A stretch of 54,013 nucleotides of DNA from a virus (Duplodnaviria > Heunggongvirae > Uroviricota > Caudoviricetes), in IMG/VR virus record IMGVR_UViG_2778261162_000003; one strand, written 5' to 3'. The notes beneath the pieces are model-generated. The model worked only from the letters and a program-made list of their open reading frames with translations, did not search any database and was not told the origin of the DNA. The translations under genes and the position numbers were made by a program. Each line of letters opens with the position of its first letter. Positions within the stretch are counted from its first letter, which is position 1. Below are positions 27,039-51,429 of this stretch, piece by piece.

Positions 27039-27461
27039 ATGTTCCTGAAAACCGAATCATTTGAACATAACGGTGTGACCGTCACGCTTTCTGAACTGTC
27101 AGCCCTGCAGCGTATTGAGCATCTCGCCCTGATGAAACGGCAGGCAGAACAGGCGGAGTCAGACAGCAACCGGAAGTTTACTGTGGAAGACGCCATCAGA
27201 ACCGGCGCGTTTCTGGTGGCGATGTCCCTGTGGCATAACCATCCGAAGAAGACAAAGCTGCCTTCCATGAATGAAGCCGTTAAACAGATTGAGCAGGAAG
27301 TGCTTACCACCTGGCCCACGGAGGCAATTTCTCATGCTGAAAACGTGGTGTACCGGCTGTCCGGTATGTATGAGTTTGTGGTGAATGATGCTCCTGAACA
27401 GACAGAGGACGCCGGGCCTGCAGAGCCTGTTTCTGCGGGAAAGTGTTCGATGGTGAGCTGA
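27039..27461 (+). CDS. G: Tail assembly chaperone G
   Basis: 140 aa, matches lambda gpG; ends just after the slippery site. Confidence 0.93.
   Translation: MFLKTESFEHNGVTVTLSELSALQRIEHLALMKRQAEQAESDSNRKFTVEDAIRTGAFLVAMSLWHNHPKKTKLPSMNEAVKQIEQEVLTTWPTEAISHAENVVYRLSGMYEFVVNDAPEQTEDAGPAEPVSAGKCSMVS
27437..27443 (+). promoter_or_regulatory. Programmed -1 ribosomal frameshift slippery heptamer G GGA AAG (G to G-T fusion)
   Basis: GGGAAAG at 27437-27443 in the G frame; the -1 frame continues as KVFDGELSFALKL..., the T reading frame. Confidence 0.85.
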
Positions 27462-27877
27462 GTTTTGCCCTGAAACTGGCGCGAGAGATGGGGCGACCCG
27501 ACTGGCGTGCCATGCTTGCCGGGATGTCATCCACGGAGTATGCCGACTGGCACCGCTTTTACAGTACCCATTATTTTCATGATGTTCTGCTGGATATGCA
27601 CTTTTCCGGGCTGACGTACACCGTGCTCAGCCTGTTTTTCAGCGATCCGGATATGCATCCGCTGGATTTCAGTCTGCTGAACCGGCGTGAGGCTGACGAA
27701 GAGCCTGAAGATGATGTGCTGATGCAGAAAGCGGCAGGGCTTGCCGGAGGCGTCCGCTTTGGCCCGGACGGGAATGAAGTTATCCCCGCTTCCCCGGATG
27801 TGGCGGACATGACGGAGGATGACGTAATGCTGATGACAGTATCAGAAGGGATCGCAGGAGGAGTCCGGTATGGCTGA
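27443..27877 (+). CDS. T: T portion of the G-T tail assembly chaperone (made only as G-T fusion by -1 frameshift)
   Basis: ORF in the -1 frame relative to G, starting at the slippery site and ending before H; matches lambda gpT. Confidence 0.85.
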   Translation: MFDGELSFALKLAREMGRPDWRAMLAGMSSTEYADWHRFYSTHYFHDVLLDMHFSGLTYTVLSLFFSDPDMHPLDFSLLNRREADEEPEDDVLMQKAAGLAGGVRFGPDGNEVIPASPDVADMTEDDVMLMTVSEGIAGGVRYG

Positions 27878-32851: not shown

Positions 32852-35800
32852 ATGGGTAAAGGAAGCAGTAAGGGGCATACCCCGCGCGAAGCGAAGGACA
32901 ACCTGAAGTCCACGCAGTTGCTGAGTGTGATTGATGCCATCAGTGAAGGGCCGATTGAAGGTCCGGTGGATGGATTAAAAAGCGTGCTGCTGAACAGTAC
33001 GTCGGTGCTGGACAGTGATGGGAATACCAACATCGCCGGTGTCACGGTGGTGTTCCGGGCTGGTGAGCAGGAGCAGACTCCGCCGGAGGGATTTGAATCC
33101 TCCGGCTCCGAGACGGTGTTGGGTACGGAAGTGAAATACGACACGCCGATCACCCGCGCCATCACGTCGGCAAACATCGACCGACTGCGCTTTACCTTCG
33201 GTGTGCAGGCACTGGTGGAAACCACCTCAAAGGGGGACCGGAATCCGTCGGAAGTTCGCCTGCTGGTTCAGATACAGCGTAATGGTGGCTGGGTGACGGA
33301 AAAAGACATCACCATTAAGGGCAAAACCACCTCGCAGTATCTGGCCTCGGTGGTGGTGGATAACCTGCCGCCGCGCCCGTTTAATATCCGGATGCGCAGA
33401 ATGACGCCGGACAGCACCACAGACCAGCTGCAGAACAAAACGCTCTGGTCGTCATACACCGAAATCATCGATGTGAAACAGTGCTACCCGAACACGGCAC
33501 TGGTCGGCGTGCAGGTGGACTCGGAACAGTTCGGCAGCCAGCAGGTGAGCCGTAATTATCATCTTCGCGGGCGCATTCTGCAGGTGCCGTCGAACTATAA
33601 CCCGCAGACGCGGCAATACAGCGGTATCTGGGACGGAACGTTTAAGCCAGCATACAGCAACAACATGGCCTGGTGTCTGTGGGATATGCTGACCCATCCG
33701 CGCTACGGCATGGGGAAGCGTCTCGGTGCGGCGGATGTGGACAAATGGGCGCTGTATGTCATCGGCCAGAATTGCGACCAGTCGGTGCCGGATGGCTTTG
33801 GTGGCACGGAGCCGCGCATCACCTGTAATGCCTACCTGACCACACAGCGCAAGGCGTGGGATGTTCTCAGTGATTTCTGCTCGGCGATGCGCTGTATGCC
33901 GGTATGGAACGGGCAGACGCTGACGTTCGTGCAGGACCGACCGTCGGATAAGGTGTGGACCTATAACCGCAGTAATGTGGTGATGCCGGATGATGGCGCG
34001 CCGTTCCGCTACAGCTTCAGTGCCCTGAAGGACCGTCATAATGCCGTTGAGGTGAACTGGATTGACCCGGATAACGGCTGGGAGACGGCGACAGAGCTTG
34101 TTGAAGATACGCAGGCCATTCTCCGTTACGGTCGTAACGTCACGAAGATGGATGCCTTTGGCTGTACCAGCCGGGGCAGGCACACCGCGCCGGGCTGTGG
34201 CTGATTAAAACGGAACTACTGGAAACGCAGACCGTGGACTTCAGCGTGGGTGCGGAAGGGCTTCGCCATGTGCCGGGCGATGTCATTGAAATCTGCGATG
34301 ATGACTATGCGGGGATCAGCACCGGCGGGCGCGTGCTGGCGGTGAACAGCCAGACCCGGACGCTGACGCTCGACCGTGAAATCACGCTGCCATCCTCCGG
34401 TACCACGCTGATAAGCCTGGTTGACGGAAGTGGCAATCCGGTCAGCGTGGAGGTCCAGTCCGTCACCGACGGCGTGAAGGTAAAAGTGAGCCGTGTTCCT
34501 GACGGCGTTGCCGGATACAGCGTATGGGGGCTGAAGCTGCCGACGCTGCGCCAGCGCCTGTTCCGCTGCGTGAGTATCCGTGAGAACGACGACGGCACGT
34601 ATGCCATCACCGCCGTGCAGCATGTACCGGAAAAAGAAGCTATCGTGGATAACGGGGCGCACTTTGACGGCGACCAGAGCGGCACGGTGAATGGTGTCAC
34701 GCCGCCAGCAGTGCAGCACCTGACTGCCGAAGTCACCGCAGACAGCGGGGAGTATCAGGTACTGGCCCGCTGGGACACGCCGAAGGTGGTGAAGGGCGTG
34801 AGTTTCATGCTTCGCCTGACCGTGGCAGCGGATGACGGCAGTGAGCGGCTGGTCAGCACGGCCCGGACGACAGAAACCACTTACCGCTTCACACAACTGG
34901 CTCTGGGGAACTACAGGCTGACAGTCCGGGCAGTAAATGCGTGGGGGCAGCAGGGCGATCCGGCGTCGGTATCGTTCCGGATTGCCGCACCGGCAGCGCC
35001 GTCGCGGATTGAGCTGACGCCGGGCTATTTTCAGATAACCGCCACGCCGCATCTTGCGGTTTATGATCCGACGGTACAGTTTGAGTTCTGGTTCTCGGAA
35101 AAACGGATTGCGGATATCAGGCAGGTTGAAACCACAGCACGCTATCTTGGCACGGCGCTGTACTGGATAGCCGCCAGTATCAATATCAGGCCGGGCCATA
35201 ATTATTATTTTTACGTTCGCAGTGTGAACACCGTTGGCAAATCGGCATTCGTGGAGGCTGTTGGTCAGCCGAGTGATGACGCATCCGGCTATCTGGATTT
35301 TTTCAAAGGCGAGATAGGGAAAACCCATCTGGCTCAGGAGCTGTGGACGCAGATTGATAACGGTCAGCTTGCGCCTGACCTGGCTGAAATCAGGACGTCC
35401 ATAACGGATGTCAGCAATGAAATCACACAGACCGTCAATAAGAAACTGGAAGACCAGAGTGCAGCGATCCAGCAGATACAGAAGGTTCAGGTTGATACAA
35501 ATAATAATCTGAACAGCATGTGGGCTGTGAAGCTGCAGCAGATGCAGGACGGACGCCTTTATATCGCGGGTATCGGTGCCGGTATTGAGAACACCCCCGA
35601 CGGCATGCAGAGTCAGGTGCTGCTGGCGGCAGACAGGATTGCGATGATTAATCCTGCAAATGGCAACACAAAACCGATGTTTGTTGGTCAGGGTGATCAG
35701 ATATTCATGAATGAAGTGTTCCTGAAATATCTGACGGCTCCCACCATTACCAGCGGCGGTAATCCTCCTGCATTTTCCCTGACACCGGACGGAAAGCTGA

Positions 35801-36330
35801 CCGCTAAAAATGCAGATATCAGTGGCAGTGTGAATGCGAACTCCGGGACGCTCAACAACGTTACGATAAATGAGAACTGTCAGATTAAAGGGAAACTGTC
35901 AGCCAACCAGATTGAAGGCGATATTGTCAAAACAGTGGGTAAGGCTTTCCCGCGGGACTCCCGGGCACCGGAGCGGTGGCCATCAGGGACCATTACCGTC
36001 AGGATTTATGACGATCAGCCTTTTGACAGGCAAATTGTTATTCCGGCGGTGGCATTCTGCGGCGCTAAACATGAGCGGGAGAATAACGATATTTATTCGT
36101 CATGCCGCCTGATAGTGAAGAAAAATGGTGCTGAAATTTATAACCGTACCGCGCTGGATAATACGCTGATTTACAGTGGTGTTATTGATATGCCAGCTGG
36201 TCACGGCCACATGACGCTGGAGTTTTCGGTGTCAGCATGGCTGGTAAATGACTGGTATCCCACAGCAAGTATCAGCGATTTGCTGGTTGTGGTGATGAAG
36301 AAAGCCACCGCAGGCATCAGTATCAGCTGA
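32852..36330 (+). pseudogene. J: Tail tip host-specificity protein J, interrupted by a -1 frameshift in a G-run (or sequencing error); C-terminal receptor-binding region appears divergent from lambda J
   Basis: ORF 32852-34204 matches lambda J residues 1 to about 445; frame changes at GGGG (34173-34176) where recalled lambda has GGGGG; downstream frame continues as [24 protein letters not shown]... matching lambda J to 36330. Confidence 0.85.
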
Positions 36331-36397: not shown

Positions 36398-36997
36398 ATG
36401 CGTAAAGTTTGTGCAGCCATTTTGTCCGCAGCCATCTGTCTGGCCGTATCCGGTGCGCCTGCATGGGCGTCTGAGCAGCAGGCCACACTGAGCGCAGGGT
36501 ATCTTCATGCCCGTACGAACGCTCCCGGCAGCGATAATCTGAACGGGATTAACGTGAAATACCGTTATGAGTTTACGGACACGCTGGGGCTGATTACGTC
36601 ATTCAGTTATGCCAACGCTGAAGATGAGCAAAAAACGCATTACAGCGATACCCGCTGGCATGAAGATTCCGTGCGTAACCGCTGGTTCAGCGTGATGGCG
36701 GGGCCGTCTGTGCGCGTGAATGAATGGTTCAGCGCGTATGCGATGGCGGGTGTGGCTTACAGCCGTGTGTCGACTTTCTCCGGGGATTATCTGCAGGTGA
36801 CCGACAATACGGGGAAAACGCACGATGTGCTGATCGGAAGTGATGACGGTCGCCACAGCAACACGTCTCTGGCGTGGGGGGCTGGCGTGCAGTTTAACCC
36901 GACCGAATCCGTGGCCGTTGATGTCGCTTATGAAGGTTCCGGCAGTGGCGACTGGCGCACTGACGGTTTCATCGTGGGTGTCGGTTATAAATTCTGA
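36398..36997 (+). CDS. lom: Outer membrane protein Lom (Ail/Lom family)
   Basis: 199 aa with signal peptide; C-terminal ...[10 protein letters not shown] beta-barrel signature; matches lambda Lom. Confidence 0.9.
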
Positions 36998-37061: not shown

Positions 37062-39890
37062 ATGGCAGTAAAGATTTCAGGTGTACTGAAAGACGGCACA
37101 GGAAAACCGGTACAGAACTGCACAATCCAGCTGAAAGCAAAACGTAACAGTACCACGGTGGTGGTGAACACGCTGGCCTCAGAAAATCCGGATGAAGCCG
37201 GGCGTTACAGCATGGACGTTGAGTACGGTCAGTACAGCGTTATTCTGTTGGTGGAAGGATTCCCGCCGTCACATGCCGGGACCATCACCGTGTATGAAGA
37301 TTCCCGACCCGGTACGCTGAATGATTTTCTCGGTGCCATGACGGAGGATGATGCCCGTCCTGAGGCACTGCGCCGTTTTGAACTGATGGTGGAAGAGGTG
37401 GCGCGTAACGCGTCCGCGGTGGCACAGAACACGGCAGCCGCGAAGAAGTCAGCCAGCGATGCCAGCACATCAGCCCGTGAGGCGGCAACCCATGCGACTG
37501 ATGCTGCAGGCTCAGCACGCGCAGCCAGCACGTCAGCCGGACAGGCTGCTTCGTCGGCTCAGTCAGCGTCTTCCAGCGCAGGAACGGCATCAACAAAGGC
37601 CACTGAAGCATTAAAAAGTGCTGCCGCTGCAGAGTCCTCAAAAAGCGCGGCGGCTACCAGTGCCGGTGCGGCGAAAACGTCAGAAACGAATGCGGCAGCG
37701 TCACAACAATCAGCAGCCACTTCTGCATCCGCCGCGACCACGAAGGCGTCAGAAGCAGCCACCTCAGCCCGGGATGCGGCGGCCTCAAAAGAGGCAGCGA
37801 AATCATCAGAAACGAACGCATCATCAAGCGCCAGTAGTGCCGCTTCCTCGGCAACGGCGGCAGGCAATTCCGCGAAGGCGGCAAAGACGTCTGAGACAAA
37901 CGCCAGGTCTTCTGAAACGGCAGCGGGACAGAGCGCCTCGGCTGCGGCAGGCTCAAAAACAGCGGCTGCGTCGTCTGCCAGTGCCGCGTCAACAAGTGCC
38001 GGGCAGGCCTCAGCCAGTGCCACCGCCGCCGGAAAATCGGCAGAAAGCGCCGCATCATCCGCTTCAACAGCCACAACGAAGGCTGGCGAAGCCACTGAAC
38101 AGGCCAGCGCAGCAGCGAGGTCTGCTTCCGCAGCGAAGACATCCGAAACGAACGCGAAAGCGTCGGAAACCAGCGCAGAATCCTCAAAAACGGCTGCCGC
38201 ATCGTCCGCCAGTTCGGCGGCGTCATCGGCATCATCTGCGTCTGCTTCAAAAGATGAGGCGACCAGACAGGCGTCAGCAGCGAGGGGCAGCGCCACGACG
38301 GCATCCACGAAGGCGACAGAGGCTGCTGGCAGTGCGGCAGCGGCAGCACAGAGCAAAAGTACGGCGGAATCCGCGGCAACGCGCGCCGAGACAGCAGCAA
38401 AACGGGCAGAGGATATTGCATCCGCCGTGGCGCTTGAGGATGCGAGCACGACGAAAAAGGGGATAGTACAGCTCAGCAGTGCGACTAACAGCACTTCCGA
38501 GTCACAGGCGGCAACGCCAAAAGCCGTTAAGGCCGCGTATGACCTGGCTAACGGGAAATACACCGCACAGGACGCTACGACAGCACAAAAAGGAATTGTC
38601 CAGCTCAGTAGTGCAACCAACAGCACATCTGAAACGCTTGCTGCGACACCGAAAGCAGTGAAAGCAGCTAATGACAATGCGAATGGTCGGGTACCTTCTG
38701 CCCGTAAGGTGAATGGTAAGGCGCTTTCAGCGGATATAACACTGACGCCGAAAGATATTGGTACGCTTAACTCAACAACAATGTCATTCAGCGGTGGTGC
38801 TGGTTGGTTCAAATTAGCAACGGTAACCATGCCACAGGCGAGTTCTGTTGTTTCAATTACGTTGATTGGTGGCGCTGGATTTAACGTGGGGTCACCTCAA
38901 CAGGCAGGTATATCTGAACTTGTTTTACGTGCAGGTAATGGTAATCCGAAGGGGATTACTGGTGCTTTATGGCAGCGCACATCGACAGGGTTTACAAATT
39001 TTGCCTGGGTCAATACATCTGGTGATACTTACGATATTTACGTTGCAATCGGAAATTATGCGACTGGTGTAAATATTCAATGGGATTATACCAGTAATGC
39101 CAGCGTGACGATTCATACGTCACCAGCATATTCTGCTAATAAGCCGGAAGGGTTAACGGACGGTACAGTTTATTCACTCTATACGCCATCAGAGCAGTTT
39201 TATCCGCCTGGCGCACCAATCCCGTGGCCATCAGATACCGTTCCGTCTGGCTATGCCCTGATGCAGGGGCAGACTTTTGACAAATCTGCATACCCGAAAC
39301 TTGCAGCCGCTTATCCGTCAGGCGTGATCCCTGATATGCGTGGCTGGACGATTAAGGGCAAACCTGCCAGTGGTCGGGCCGTATTGTCTCAGGAACAGGA
39401 CGGCATTAAATCGCATACCCACAGCGCCAGCGCATCCAGTACGGATTTGGGGACGAAAACCACATCGTCGTTTGATTACGGCACTAAATCCACGAATAAC
39501 ACTGGTGCGCATACCCATAGTTTAAGTGGCAGCACGAATGCAGCTGGTAATCACAGCCATAGAGATGGCCGTCGATTTAACCCCAGTGTTTTTAAAGATA
39601 CTTATCAATATGGTTATACAAGCTCAGGTCAAAATACCTGGGGTGTACAAGGCTCAGTAGGTATGTCTACGGGGTGGTTAGCGAATACCAGTACAGATGG
39701 TAATCATAGCCATTCACTGTCCGGCACAGCAGCATCTGCAGGTGCACACGCGCATACTGTCGGTATTGGTGCTCATACGCACTCCGTTGCGATTGGTTCA
39801 CATGGACACACCATCACCGTTAACGCTGCTGGTAACGCGGAAAACACCGTCAAAAACATCGCATTTAACTATATTGTGAGGCTTGCATAA
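37062..39890 (+). CDS. stf: Side tail fiber protein Stf (full length)
   Basis: N-terminal 110 aa match lambda Stf ([27 protein letters not shown]...); long Ala/Ser/Thr-rich repeat region; C-terminal domain with repeated His-x-His motifs ([42 protein letters not shown]). Confidence 0.9.
37400..38470 (+). repeat. Low-complexity Ala/Ser/Thr-rich coding repeat inside stf
   Basis: Iterated SAxSAxxAAT/KTSETNA units at protein level; GC-rich repetitive DNA producing long spurious ORFs on other frames and the opposite strand. Confidence 0.8.
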
Positions 39891-48436: not shown

Positions 48437-51429
48437 TTACCAGTGCACTCCAATGGTGAGAAACGCGTTGTTGCGCTCTCCGTTACGTTGATTAATCGCC
48501 TTAAAGGTATGTTGATACTCGACGCCGAGACTGACTTTGTGCGGCCAGGCGTCGTAGTGCGTCTCGCCGGTCCAGATATTCCAGCGGACCCCGACTCCGC
48601 CAAGCTGCGCGCCCTGAGTGCCTTTATCACGATAGCCGTTGTCCTGAACGTGAGCGTAAGGCTCAATAGTCTGTCCGTTAGCTACCTTCTGATGCCAGCT
48701 GACGCGATAATCTGCCGTCCACGCCTGAATATCCTGGCGGATATATTGCGCCGCATCGAGGTACAGGTTTTGGGCAAACCAGCCTGAACCGTTCGGGTGC
48801 CATTCGTCGCTGTATTTGCCGCCATTAAAGAATGAGGCGCTGGCGCGCAGCATGGTATCGGATGCGCCATTTTGCCCGTTCAGCGGCAACTGCTGTTCGA
48901 CGGCGAGGAAAAAGATCTGATCGCGCAGCGGCTTCCAGCGCAGACCGGTGCCGGACATCGGATTTTTCACCGGCATCATCACCCCGTTTTCTCCGGTATC
49001 GGCAAAGACGCGGCTATAAACTGAGAGCAGGTCGCCTTCCAGCAGCATATTGCGTCCGATGCGGTACTCGGCTTCCAGTTGCCCGTAGCTACGATAGCTT
49101 TTCCCTGGCGCTGCGCCGCCGACATTATTGTTAGCGGTGCTCATTGCCCCGGAACGCAAGCCGATAGAAGAATCGAAACTGAACGTCCAGCGGCGACCGA
49201 CCTCCTCATGCAAACGGCGGAAATTGAAGCGTTGCTGATTTTGCTCTGGGGTCAGTGGGGTTATCAGCGCCTGATTATCAATGTCATCAATCACCAGCCG
49301 GGCGTAGTGCTGCGTCGCAGGCATGTCATCCAGACGCTGGTTCACGTAGGCCAGTTGTCGGATCAGTGCCGGATCGTCCGGAAGCCCTTTATGCGCCTGT
49401 TCGAGCATTTCCCGCGACTGTGCGATATCACCGCTATCCCACAAGGCGTAACCAAGCGCTGCCTGGATGTTGCTATTATTCGGTTCCAGTTCCAGCGCGG
49501 CGCGCAAATCACTCACCGCCGCCGGGACATTATGACGTTGGCGATAAATTGTCGCCCGCGCAACGTAAGCGTTGGCAGAAGGCGCAATATTGATTGAGCG
49601 CGTGAGATCGCTCAGTGCGAGTTCCGGCTGACCAGGAATGTAACGTTGCGCATGCAGCCACCAGTAGAGGGCATTGTTTCCCAGTCCACGTTGTTCTGCC
49701 TGTTGTAGCCAGCGATCGCGAGCTGCACCATTTCCTGCCGCCTGGGCGGTATTGGCAGCAGCAAGCAGATCCTCATTGCTCATGTCGTGAAGACTGATTT
49801 TCTGCCAGGCCGCCAGTGCGGTGGCGTAGTCCTCAACCTGATACGCCTGATAGGCTACCGCACGATGTTGCCAGGCGTTCGGTTGTCGTTGTTCGGCCTG
49901 AAGCCATGCATACAGCGCCACACCGGGTAGCGTGTCCCGATAACACTTTGCCAGACGGTTCCAGGCGGCAGCATCGTAGGAAGGCGACATATCGCCCAGC
50001 AAGCGAACTATTGCCGGGCAATTATCTGCAATACCCGGCAACTGACTTTGCCACTGACGTTGCTCCGCCAGCGGTAAGGGTTTCGATAAAATCGCCACCT
50101 TCGCCGGCGTTGCCAGGTAAGGATGACTTTCCAGCAGAGACGCCAGTCGCGCCATTAAAGTCTGGCTGACACGCGCATCGCCCTGGAAAGGATAGCGTTG
50201 CAGCAATAAATCGGCAGCTTCGCGTGACTGCTCGTTCTGCATCAGTTGCCAGGTCAGTTGATCCAGGCGGGTAAGATTTGCCGGTTCTTGCTGATACAGC
50301 AATCGTGCCAGACGCAGAGATTCAGCCTTGTTACGGGCGCCACGCTGACAGCATAACGCTCCTCAAGCATTTCATTGGCGGGGAGGGTGGCGAGCAGTTT
50401 TTGCGCTGCGTCGTACTGACCTTCTTTTAACAGCACCGGTAGCGTCGCGCCAACAACATACTGGCGGTTATCGGCAAACTGCACCGTATAATTCGCCAAT
50501 GCCTGAACGGGGTTGGCGCTGTATTTAGATAACAGATAGAGCCAACTTTTCTCTTGTGCGTCCGTGGTAAACAGCGGCTTATTTTCATTGAGATAATGCT
50601 GGAGGCGTGCTTTTTCGCCACGATAAGCCAGCGCGGTCGCGTAAGTAATATATGACTGAGGATCGGTGAAGATCCCCTGTGATTGCAGTGCCAGGATCCG
50701 ATCGTCCAGCTGCCCGGCAAGAAGCACGTCAAACCACTGACGGCGTTCTGCCGCGCTTAATGTGTTCTGCTGGCGTGCTTCATTGTATAGCGTATCTGCC
50801 TGGGACCATTGTTTCAGGTAGATTGCCCGTTGCAGCAGATCGGTTCGCAGCGTTTTTCCTTCTGGCGATGCAGCAAACGTCGCATCGTTCAGTTGCGCTC
50901 TGGCGACAGGTAATTGTGCCAGCCGCAGGGCATTCTGCCCGACTTCACTGCGACAACGCAGGGTCGGCGCAGCGTCGCACGCTTTTTGCTGGGCAAGCAG
51001 TTCTTCAACAGTCGTAACGCTTTTCACTTCAACCGGAATAGCCGCCAGACTGCGCTCAAGTCGGGCATCTCCTGGGTGACGTTTCAGTTGATCCTCAAGC
51101 AACAGCCGCGCCCGGTCATCATGACCAAAATGGCGATAGGCTTCCGCAAGGTATAAAGTAAGCGGAATATTATCCGGCACCTGCTGGTGTATATATTCAA
51201 ATTCGCGGATGGCGGTTGCTTCGTCGTTATTTTTCTGTGCCTTCAGCGACTTATCGAGACGGGGATAAATAACAAAATGGCGATAATCGCTCAGCCCCAG
51301 CTCTTCTGCGCTGGTGCCGATATTGTCTGCGAGTGCGCTGGTACTCAATAAAGACGTCAGCAGTAAACCAGACCATCCGATGACGCGATTAAGGTTATTC
51401 TCCTTCATTTTCGGACTCCAGTTGCGCAA
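48437..51429 (-). pseudogene. nfrA: Bacteriophage N4 adsorption outer membrane protein NfrA, split into two overlapping ORFs (frameshift or sequencing error)
   Basis: N-terminal ORF 50254-51429 (391 aa, signal peptide, TPR-like) and C-terminal ORF 48437-50302 (621 aa, ends ...AFLTIGVHW) in different frames, overlapping about 50 nt; together equal NfrA length (about 990 aa). Confidence 0.8.

Follow-up and report, generated by a model that had tools for sequence, protein, structure and literature searches.

A probable one-base deletion in a G-run splits the tail tip gene J of a nearly complete lambdoid prophage at the DLP12/argU locus of Escherichia coli

The window analysed here, the whole stretch of 54,013 bp, is contig NTPL01000026.1 of the E. 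coli draft assembly GCA_002463795.1 and carries a lambdoid prophage of a type present at the argU/DLP12 locus of many strains. Its genes include DUF1382, exo, bet, gam, kil, cI, O, P, ren, emrE, ybcK, rusA, quuD and a porin gene, together with essD, rrrD, rzpD, nohD, a full lambda-like set of head and tail genes, lom, stf, tfa and pinR. The right end of the window is E. coli chromosome with ompT, envY, ybcH, nfrA and nfrB and is nearly identical (shown as 100.0%) to that of many strains. The features to which we refer are the following:

1-594, IS21-family element (istB), 3′ end; many strains have copies that are 99.8% identical to it
595-40465 (end approximate), plus strand, visible lambdoid prophage at the DLP12/argU locus, from the DUF1382 gene to lom, stf and tfa
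27437-27443, slippery heptamer GGGAAAG of the G/GT -1 frameshift, in the overlap of G (27039-27461) and T (27443-27877)
32852-36330, plus strand, pseudogene of J (tail tip/central tail fibre), 3479 nt, recognized from two ORFs, Pfam domains and the comparison with lambda
32852-34204, plus strand, 5′ ORF of J, 450 aa (442 native residues, 8 out-of-frame residues, stop)
34138-34201, plus strand, sole stretch in which a -1 shift would restore J, between the last stop of the -1 frame (34135-34137) and the zero-frame stop
34173-34176, plus strand, GGGG run, site of the one-base deletion (GGGGG in lambda and nearly all relatives)
34177-36330, plus strand, rest of J (native Q443 to S1159), in the -1 frame relative to the 5′ ORF
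34202-34204, plus strand, premature TGA stop read in the shifted frame
48437-51408, minus strand, nfrA (phage N4 adsorption protein), split into ORFs of 384 aa and 621 aa by a deletion at about 50338

The IS21-family element, which explains the end of the contig, is joined to the early-left arm of the prophage inside a small hypothetical gene, on what is the int side in strain 2014C-3338. When 57 annotated proteins of 2014C-3338 were compared with the window by tblastn, 55 were recovered at full length, in one frame and without stops; only J and nfrA were split between frames, J being the sole prophage gene in this state.

The sequence read at 34160-34210 is ggctgtaccagccGGGGcaggcacaccgcgccgggctgtggcTGAtt. 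The initial annotation had placed a change of frame at a run of four G in J, where it gave five for lambda, followed by a premature stop, and these points were all borne out: J is open in two frames on either side of 34173-34176, the TGA lies at 34202-34204, and lambda (NC_001416) has GGGGG in an otherwise identical context of 50 nt. The 5′ ORF is native up to G442, continues with the aberrant residues RHTAPGCG and carries the FNIII-A_GpJ domain and a truncated Phage-tail_3 hub domain. The downstream ORF listed in the ORF table starts one base back in frame with GTG at 34234, ends at 36330 and comprises 698 aa. Both translations are recognizable as J, and the downstream part of the gene encodes the remainder of the hub, Ig_J, Ig_J_second, Phage_Tail_Tip and the receptor-binding Ig_GpJ_C. 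Addition of one G yields an ORF of 3480 nt with 1159 codons plus stop, in place of the approximately 1130 lambda-like codons that had been estimated; the likeness to lambda was thus correct and the length too short. A functional gpJ gene has an uninterrupted frame, and here it is broken by the one-base deletion and the TGA. What is found instead is the mark of a pseudogene, a single-base indel relative to intact close homologues, and no compensating indel was detected elsewhere in J in comparisons with EBJ003, 2014C-3338, lambda and the closest allele. The truncated J that had been deduced from the loss of a single base in a homopolymer is therefore supported, with translation ending after 442 native and 8 aberrant residues.

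The repaired product is a complete gpJ. It shows 83.2% identity with the 1132-aa lambda J from end to end (residues 1-1158 versus 1-1131), it matches the gpJ of PDB 8iyk with an E-value of 0, its first 836 residues aligning position for position, and the gene lies in the expected tail gene order H-M-L-K-I-J-lom-stf-tfa. A Pfam scan recovered all six gpJ domains above their cut-offs (E-values 1e-31 to 1e-42), at the following residues of repaired J:

86-207, FNIII-A_GpJ
330-498, Phage-tail_3 (hub)
610-714, Ig_J
716-818, Ig_J_second
872-1000, Phage_Tail_Tip
1029-1159, Ig_GpJ_C (receptor-binding)

The window J shares with lambda gpJ (PDB 8iyk, 8k35) the gene family, the order of neighbours, the Pfam set and the 50 nt around the G-run. 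It differs in a diverged C-terminal part of the repaired protein, in its repaired length of 1159 aa rather than 1132 aa, and in having four G rather than five, with the frame lost past residue 442.

A comparison of the locus in related strains, proposed in the initial annotation, was carried out, and nearly all relatives have five G and are in frame. The prophage of E. coli EBJ003 differs from the window at a single one of 163 aligned columns, GGGGG versus GGGG, and 2014C-3338 likewise has five G at this run; this one G is the sole uncompensated indel of the window J relative to lambda, EBJ003, 2014C-3338 and the closest allele. An 81-mer centred on the run was searched in 5426 complete E. coli genomes and matched 8287 places in 4219 of them. 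The exact four-G form occupied one of these places (about 0.01%), in strain RM8082; in the summary by identity bands two records reached at least 99%, and RM8082 was the only genome listed at 100%, while the other matches listed all carried one extra base. In RM8082, J is annotated as frameshifted and so is an adjacent tail gene. Among IMG/VR contigs, the four-G 29-mer was present on 2 and the five-G 30-mer on at least 120, and in GTDB, sampled with one genome per species, none of 22 matches had four G, all 22 being the 30-nt form.

The four J alleles with four G, those of the window, RM8082 (L002) and two IMG/VR contigs (L011 and L012), share no more than about 95-96% identity with one another, so the same G5-to-G4 deletion, or else the same miscall, arose more than once. 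Such repetition would be expected from a small hotspot at this homopolymer, or from assemblies in which homopolymers are now and then miscalled. Among the alleles found, the one closest to the window J (L008; GCA_900479525.1, UCXY01000009.1) differs from it by two substitutions and the length of the G-run. It is inactivated separately, by a TGT-to-TGA change at position 2931, equivalent to 34165 in the window, which places the nonsense codon 8 nt upstream of an intact five-G run. The proximity of this lesion to the run is largely a matter of ascertainment, since the look-up required an identical 698-aa downstream product. The look-ups turned up no sister isolate carrying this variant of the prophage, so that the ancestral state of the J run is not seen directly within the lineage.

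We consider it probable that the isolate has truly lost one G in J (G5 to G4). The competing explanation with the largest remaining share, although an unlikely one, is a sequencing or consensus error, in which the isolate would have an intact J with five G, one of them missed when the homopolymer was called from the reads. A change in homopolymer length is a classic class of error, the window J allele was seen in this one isolate and run only, and the only complete genome found with four G, that of RM8082, includes a tail gene next to J that is annotated as frameshifted. Moreover, the same contig contains a second private one-base deletion, in nfrA, and two private frameshifts within 54 kb are somewhat above the expectation for a wild isolate, which counts against a genuine deletion. 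However, the nfrA deletion, a T absent between GGG and CGCC, lies outside any homopolymer; the 4253 complete E. coli genomes compared all lack it, and a second contig encodes the same truncated product. A Logan contig (SRR3989769_219) from a separate assembly, built straight from the SRR3989769 reads, matches the window with 100% identity along 15,646 nt and likewise has four G at the run. This contig and the NCBI assembly very probably go back to a single read set, so that a systematic platform error at the G-run keeps a small probability; yet runs of no more than four or five G are hardly long enough to be miscalled systematically at consensus depth. Poor overall quality of the assembly was considered and rejected in view of the 55 intact genes among 57 and of the region 590-28844, whose 28,255 nt differ from 2014C-3338 by 260 substitutions but by no gap and contain 140 homopolymers of at least 5 nt, none of which differs in length from its counterpart. 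Together, the Logan contig and this gap-free alignment make an assembly artefact unlikely, and the escape through sequencing error that had been left open at the outset is weakened, as there is no general problem with homopolymer indels on this contig. No paper on SRR3989769, NTPL00000000 or GCA_002463795 was found in the literature.

Readings in which the four-G gene still yields working J are, taken jointly, very improbable. In one of them, -1 ribosomal frameshifting or transcriptional slippage would still allow the four-G template to yield full-length J. Such recoding is favoured by the background level of slippage that G-rich runs can show, by the occurrence of the four-G form in four alleles of only about 95% mutual identity and by the fact that J would be restored by a -1 shift at any point of 34138-34201; even a low efficiency might suffice, J being a trimer in the lambda tail tip (PMC10721106). 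Yet the zero-frame codons of this stretch, read directly (AAC GTC ACG AAG ATG GAT GCC TTT GGC TGT ACC AGC CGG GGC AGG CAC ACC GCG CCG GGC TGT GGC), include no X XXY YYZ slippery heptamer. The 94 nt of RNA downstream (34177-34270) fold at -31.8 kcal/mol with z = -0.61 against shuffled sequences, which indicates no unusual stimulatory structure. Nor is the two-frame arrangement conserved, given the single E. coli place, the 2 versus at least 120 IMG/VR contigs and the 0 of 22 in GTDB; in E. coli, the exact four-G 81-mer is absent from the other 8286 places. This prophage does have a genuine programmed frameshift, which is of the canonical lambda G/GT type and lies at 27437-27443. Like J here, lambda G/GT has overlapping frames in a tail gene, but it uses the heptamer GGGAAAG, conserved among phages, whereas the J site has nothing comparable, with no heptamer, no stimulatory structure and no conservation. 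A programmed -1 frameshift in J was therefore rejected, and the suggestion that a slippage-prone tract might correct the frame found no support; we regard recoding of any kind as highly improbable. Four G are far shorter than the tracts known to give RNA-polymerase slippage or phase variation. Phase variation was rejected as well, the tract being 4 or 5 nt long (contingency loci typically have at least 7 nt) and the four-G form occupying about 0.01% of places, even though that form nonetheless occurs in the four alleles. The same four alleles, with the nearly identical allele that has a nonsense codon 8 nt away, are what might speak for the G5 run (J codons 441-442) as a recurrent reversible hotspot or weakly leaky slip site, an idea to which we give very little credence; if true, it would switch lambdoid prophages between infectious and tail-less states. 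Still less probable is a split but functional J, in which the 450-aa piece and a piece re-initiated at GTG 34234 would form a working tail tip. The 698-aa ORF begins 30 nt past the TGA and is predicted as a gene by gene callers, and in other phages the hub domains are spread over separate proteins (PMC10721106); against this, the break falls in the middle of Phage-tail_3, residues 443-461 would be absent, and no conserved split of J was seen in related phages, the only other split found, in the closest allele, being a nonsense change at a different codon.

If the deletion is genuine, as we think probable, the frame would shift past residue 442 and translation would stop within the hub domain. 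In lambda gpJ, hub domain HDIV includes strands at 477-482 and 570-578 and is followed by the FNIII domains, the central fibre and the receptor-binding domain (PMC10721106). Because translation stops inside Phage-tail_3, the truncated J would be devoid of everything from the remainder of the hub onwards: Ig/FNIII domains, central fibre and C-terminal receptor-binding domain. Tail assembly of lambda "starts with protein J" (PMC3224144), and heads without tails are predicted for this reason: upon induction, without full-length J, tail assembly would not be started, and the cell would accumulate DNA-filled heads, no tails and no infectious particles. By analogy with lambda genetics, the prophage should be tail-less, except where J is supplied by another resident prophage, where the gene is repaired by recombination or where four G revert to five. 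The initial annotation had called the prophage adsorption-defective; "defective" stands, but the expected defect is a failure of tail assembly rather than of adsorption alone, given the role of J in assembly (PMC3224144) and a break within residues 330-498.

The J deletion looks recent and private, as every other prophage gene checked is intact. The IS21-family element next to the left arm is a second sign of decay, and its junction may affect excision; with this element adjoining the early-left arm, the picture fits a prophage that is beginning to decay. The lesion in J is ordinary prophage decay of an already-known kind, neither regulated nor programmed, and involves no new mechanism. Cryptic and defective lambdoid prophages of E. 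coli decay through point lesions and IS insertion, as is the case here. DLP12 of K-12 occupies the same argU/ompT-nfrA locus and shares with the window prophage ybcK, emrE, rusA, quuD, essD, rrrD, rzpD and nohD as well as the flanking genes ompT, ybcH, nfrA and nfrB. DLP12 of K-12 has lost its structural genes, whereas the window prophage is nearly complete, with its full set of head and tail genes. The nearest textbook parallel is the laboratory lambda (lambda PaPa), whose side tail fibre gene, stf, is broken up by a frameshift into orf-401 and orf-314 (PMC10721106). As in J, this is a plain, unprogrammed frameshift that divides a gene of the tail-fibre region into two annotated ORFs; lambda PaPa is viable because stf is dispensable, whereas J is essential for tail assembly and its lesion should be lethal for particle production. 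No open biological question hinges on the J frameshift. Its relevance is local, for inducing the prophage, for its use in transduction and for scoring prophage intactness in this isolate, and it calls for caution with automated annotation, by which two J genes of 450 and 698 aa are called at one pseudogene.

Some minor observations concern the neighbouring tail genes and the distribution of the J sequence. The stf gene (37062-39890) is in frame and encodes 942 aa, compared with 986 aa in 2014C-3338, with 93% identity between the two products. No other assembly contained the exact Stf product of the window, and the end of the Logan contig, at 38497, lies inside stf; the shorter Stf may reflect a genuine difference in repeat length, or internal repeats that were collapsed in assembling short reads. 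The lom gene (36398-36997) is intact in the window, and the otherwise similar prophage of 2014C-3338, in which lom is annotated as frameshifted, is without a 13-nt segment, CTGGCGTGGGGGG, at about 36869. Finally, in the GTDB scan (L133-L154) the lambda-type J 30-mer also occurred on low-coverage contigs in assemblies of unrelated bacteria, among them Pseudomonas, Shewanella, Bradyrhizobium, Paenibacillus and Oceanobacillus. Four such contigs measure about 48.4-48.5 kb, and the presence of the 30-mer in these assemblies looks like contamination with lambda control DNA.
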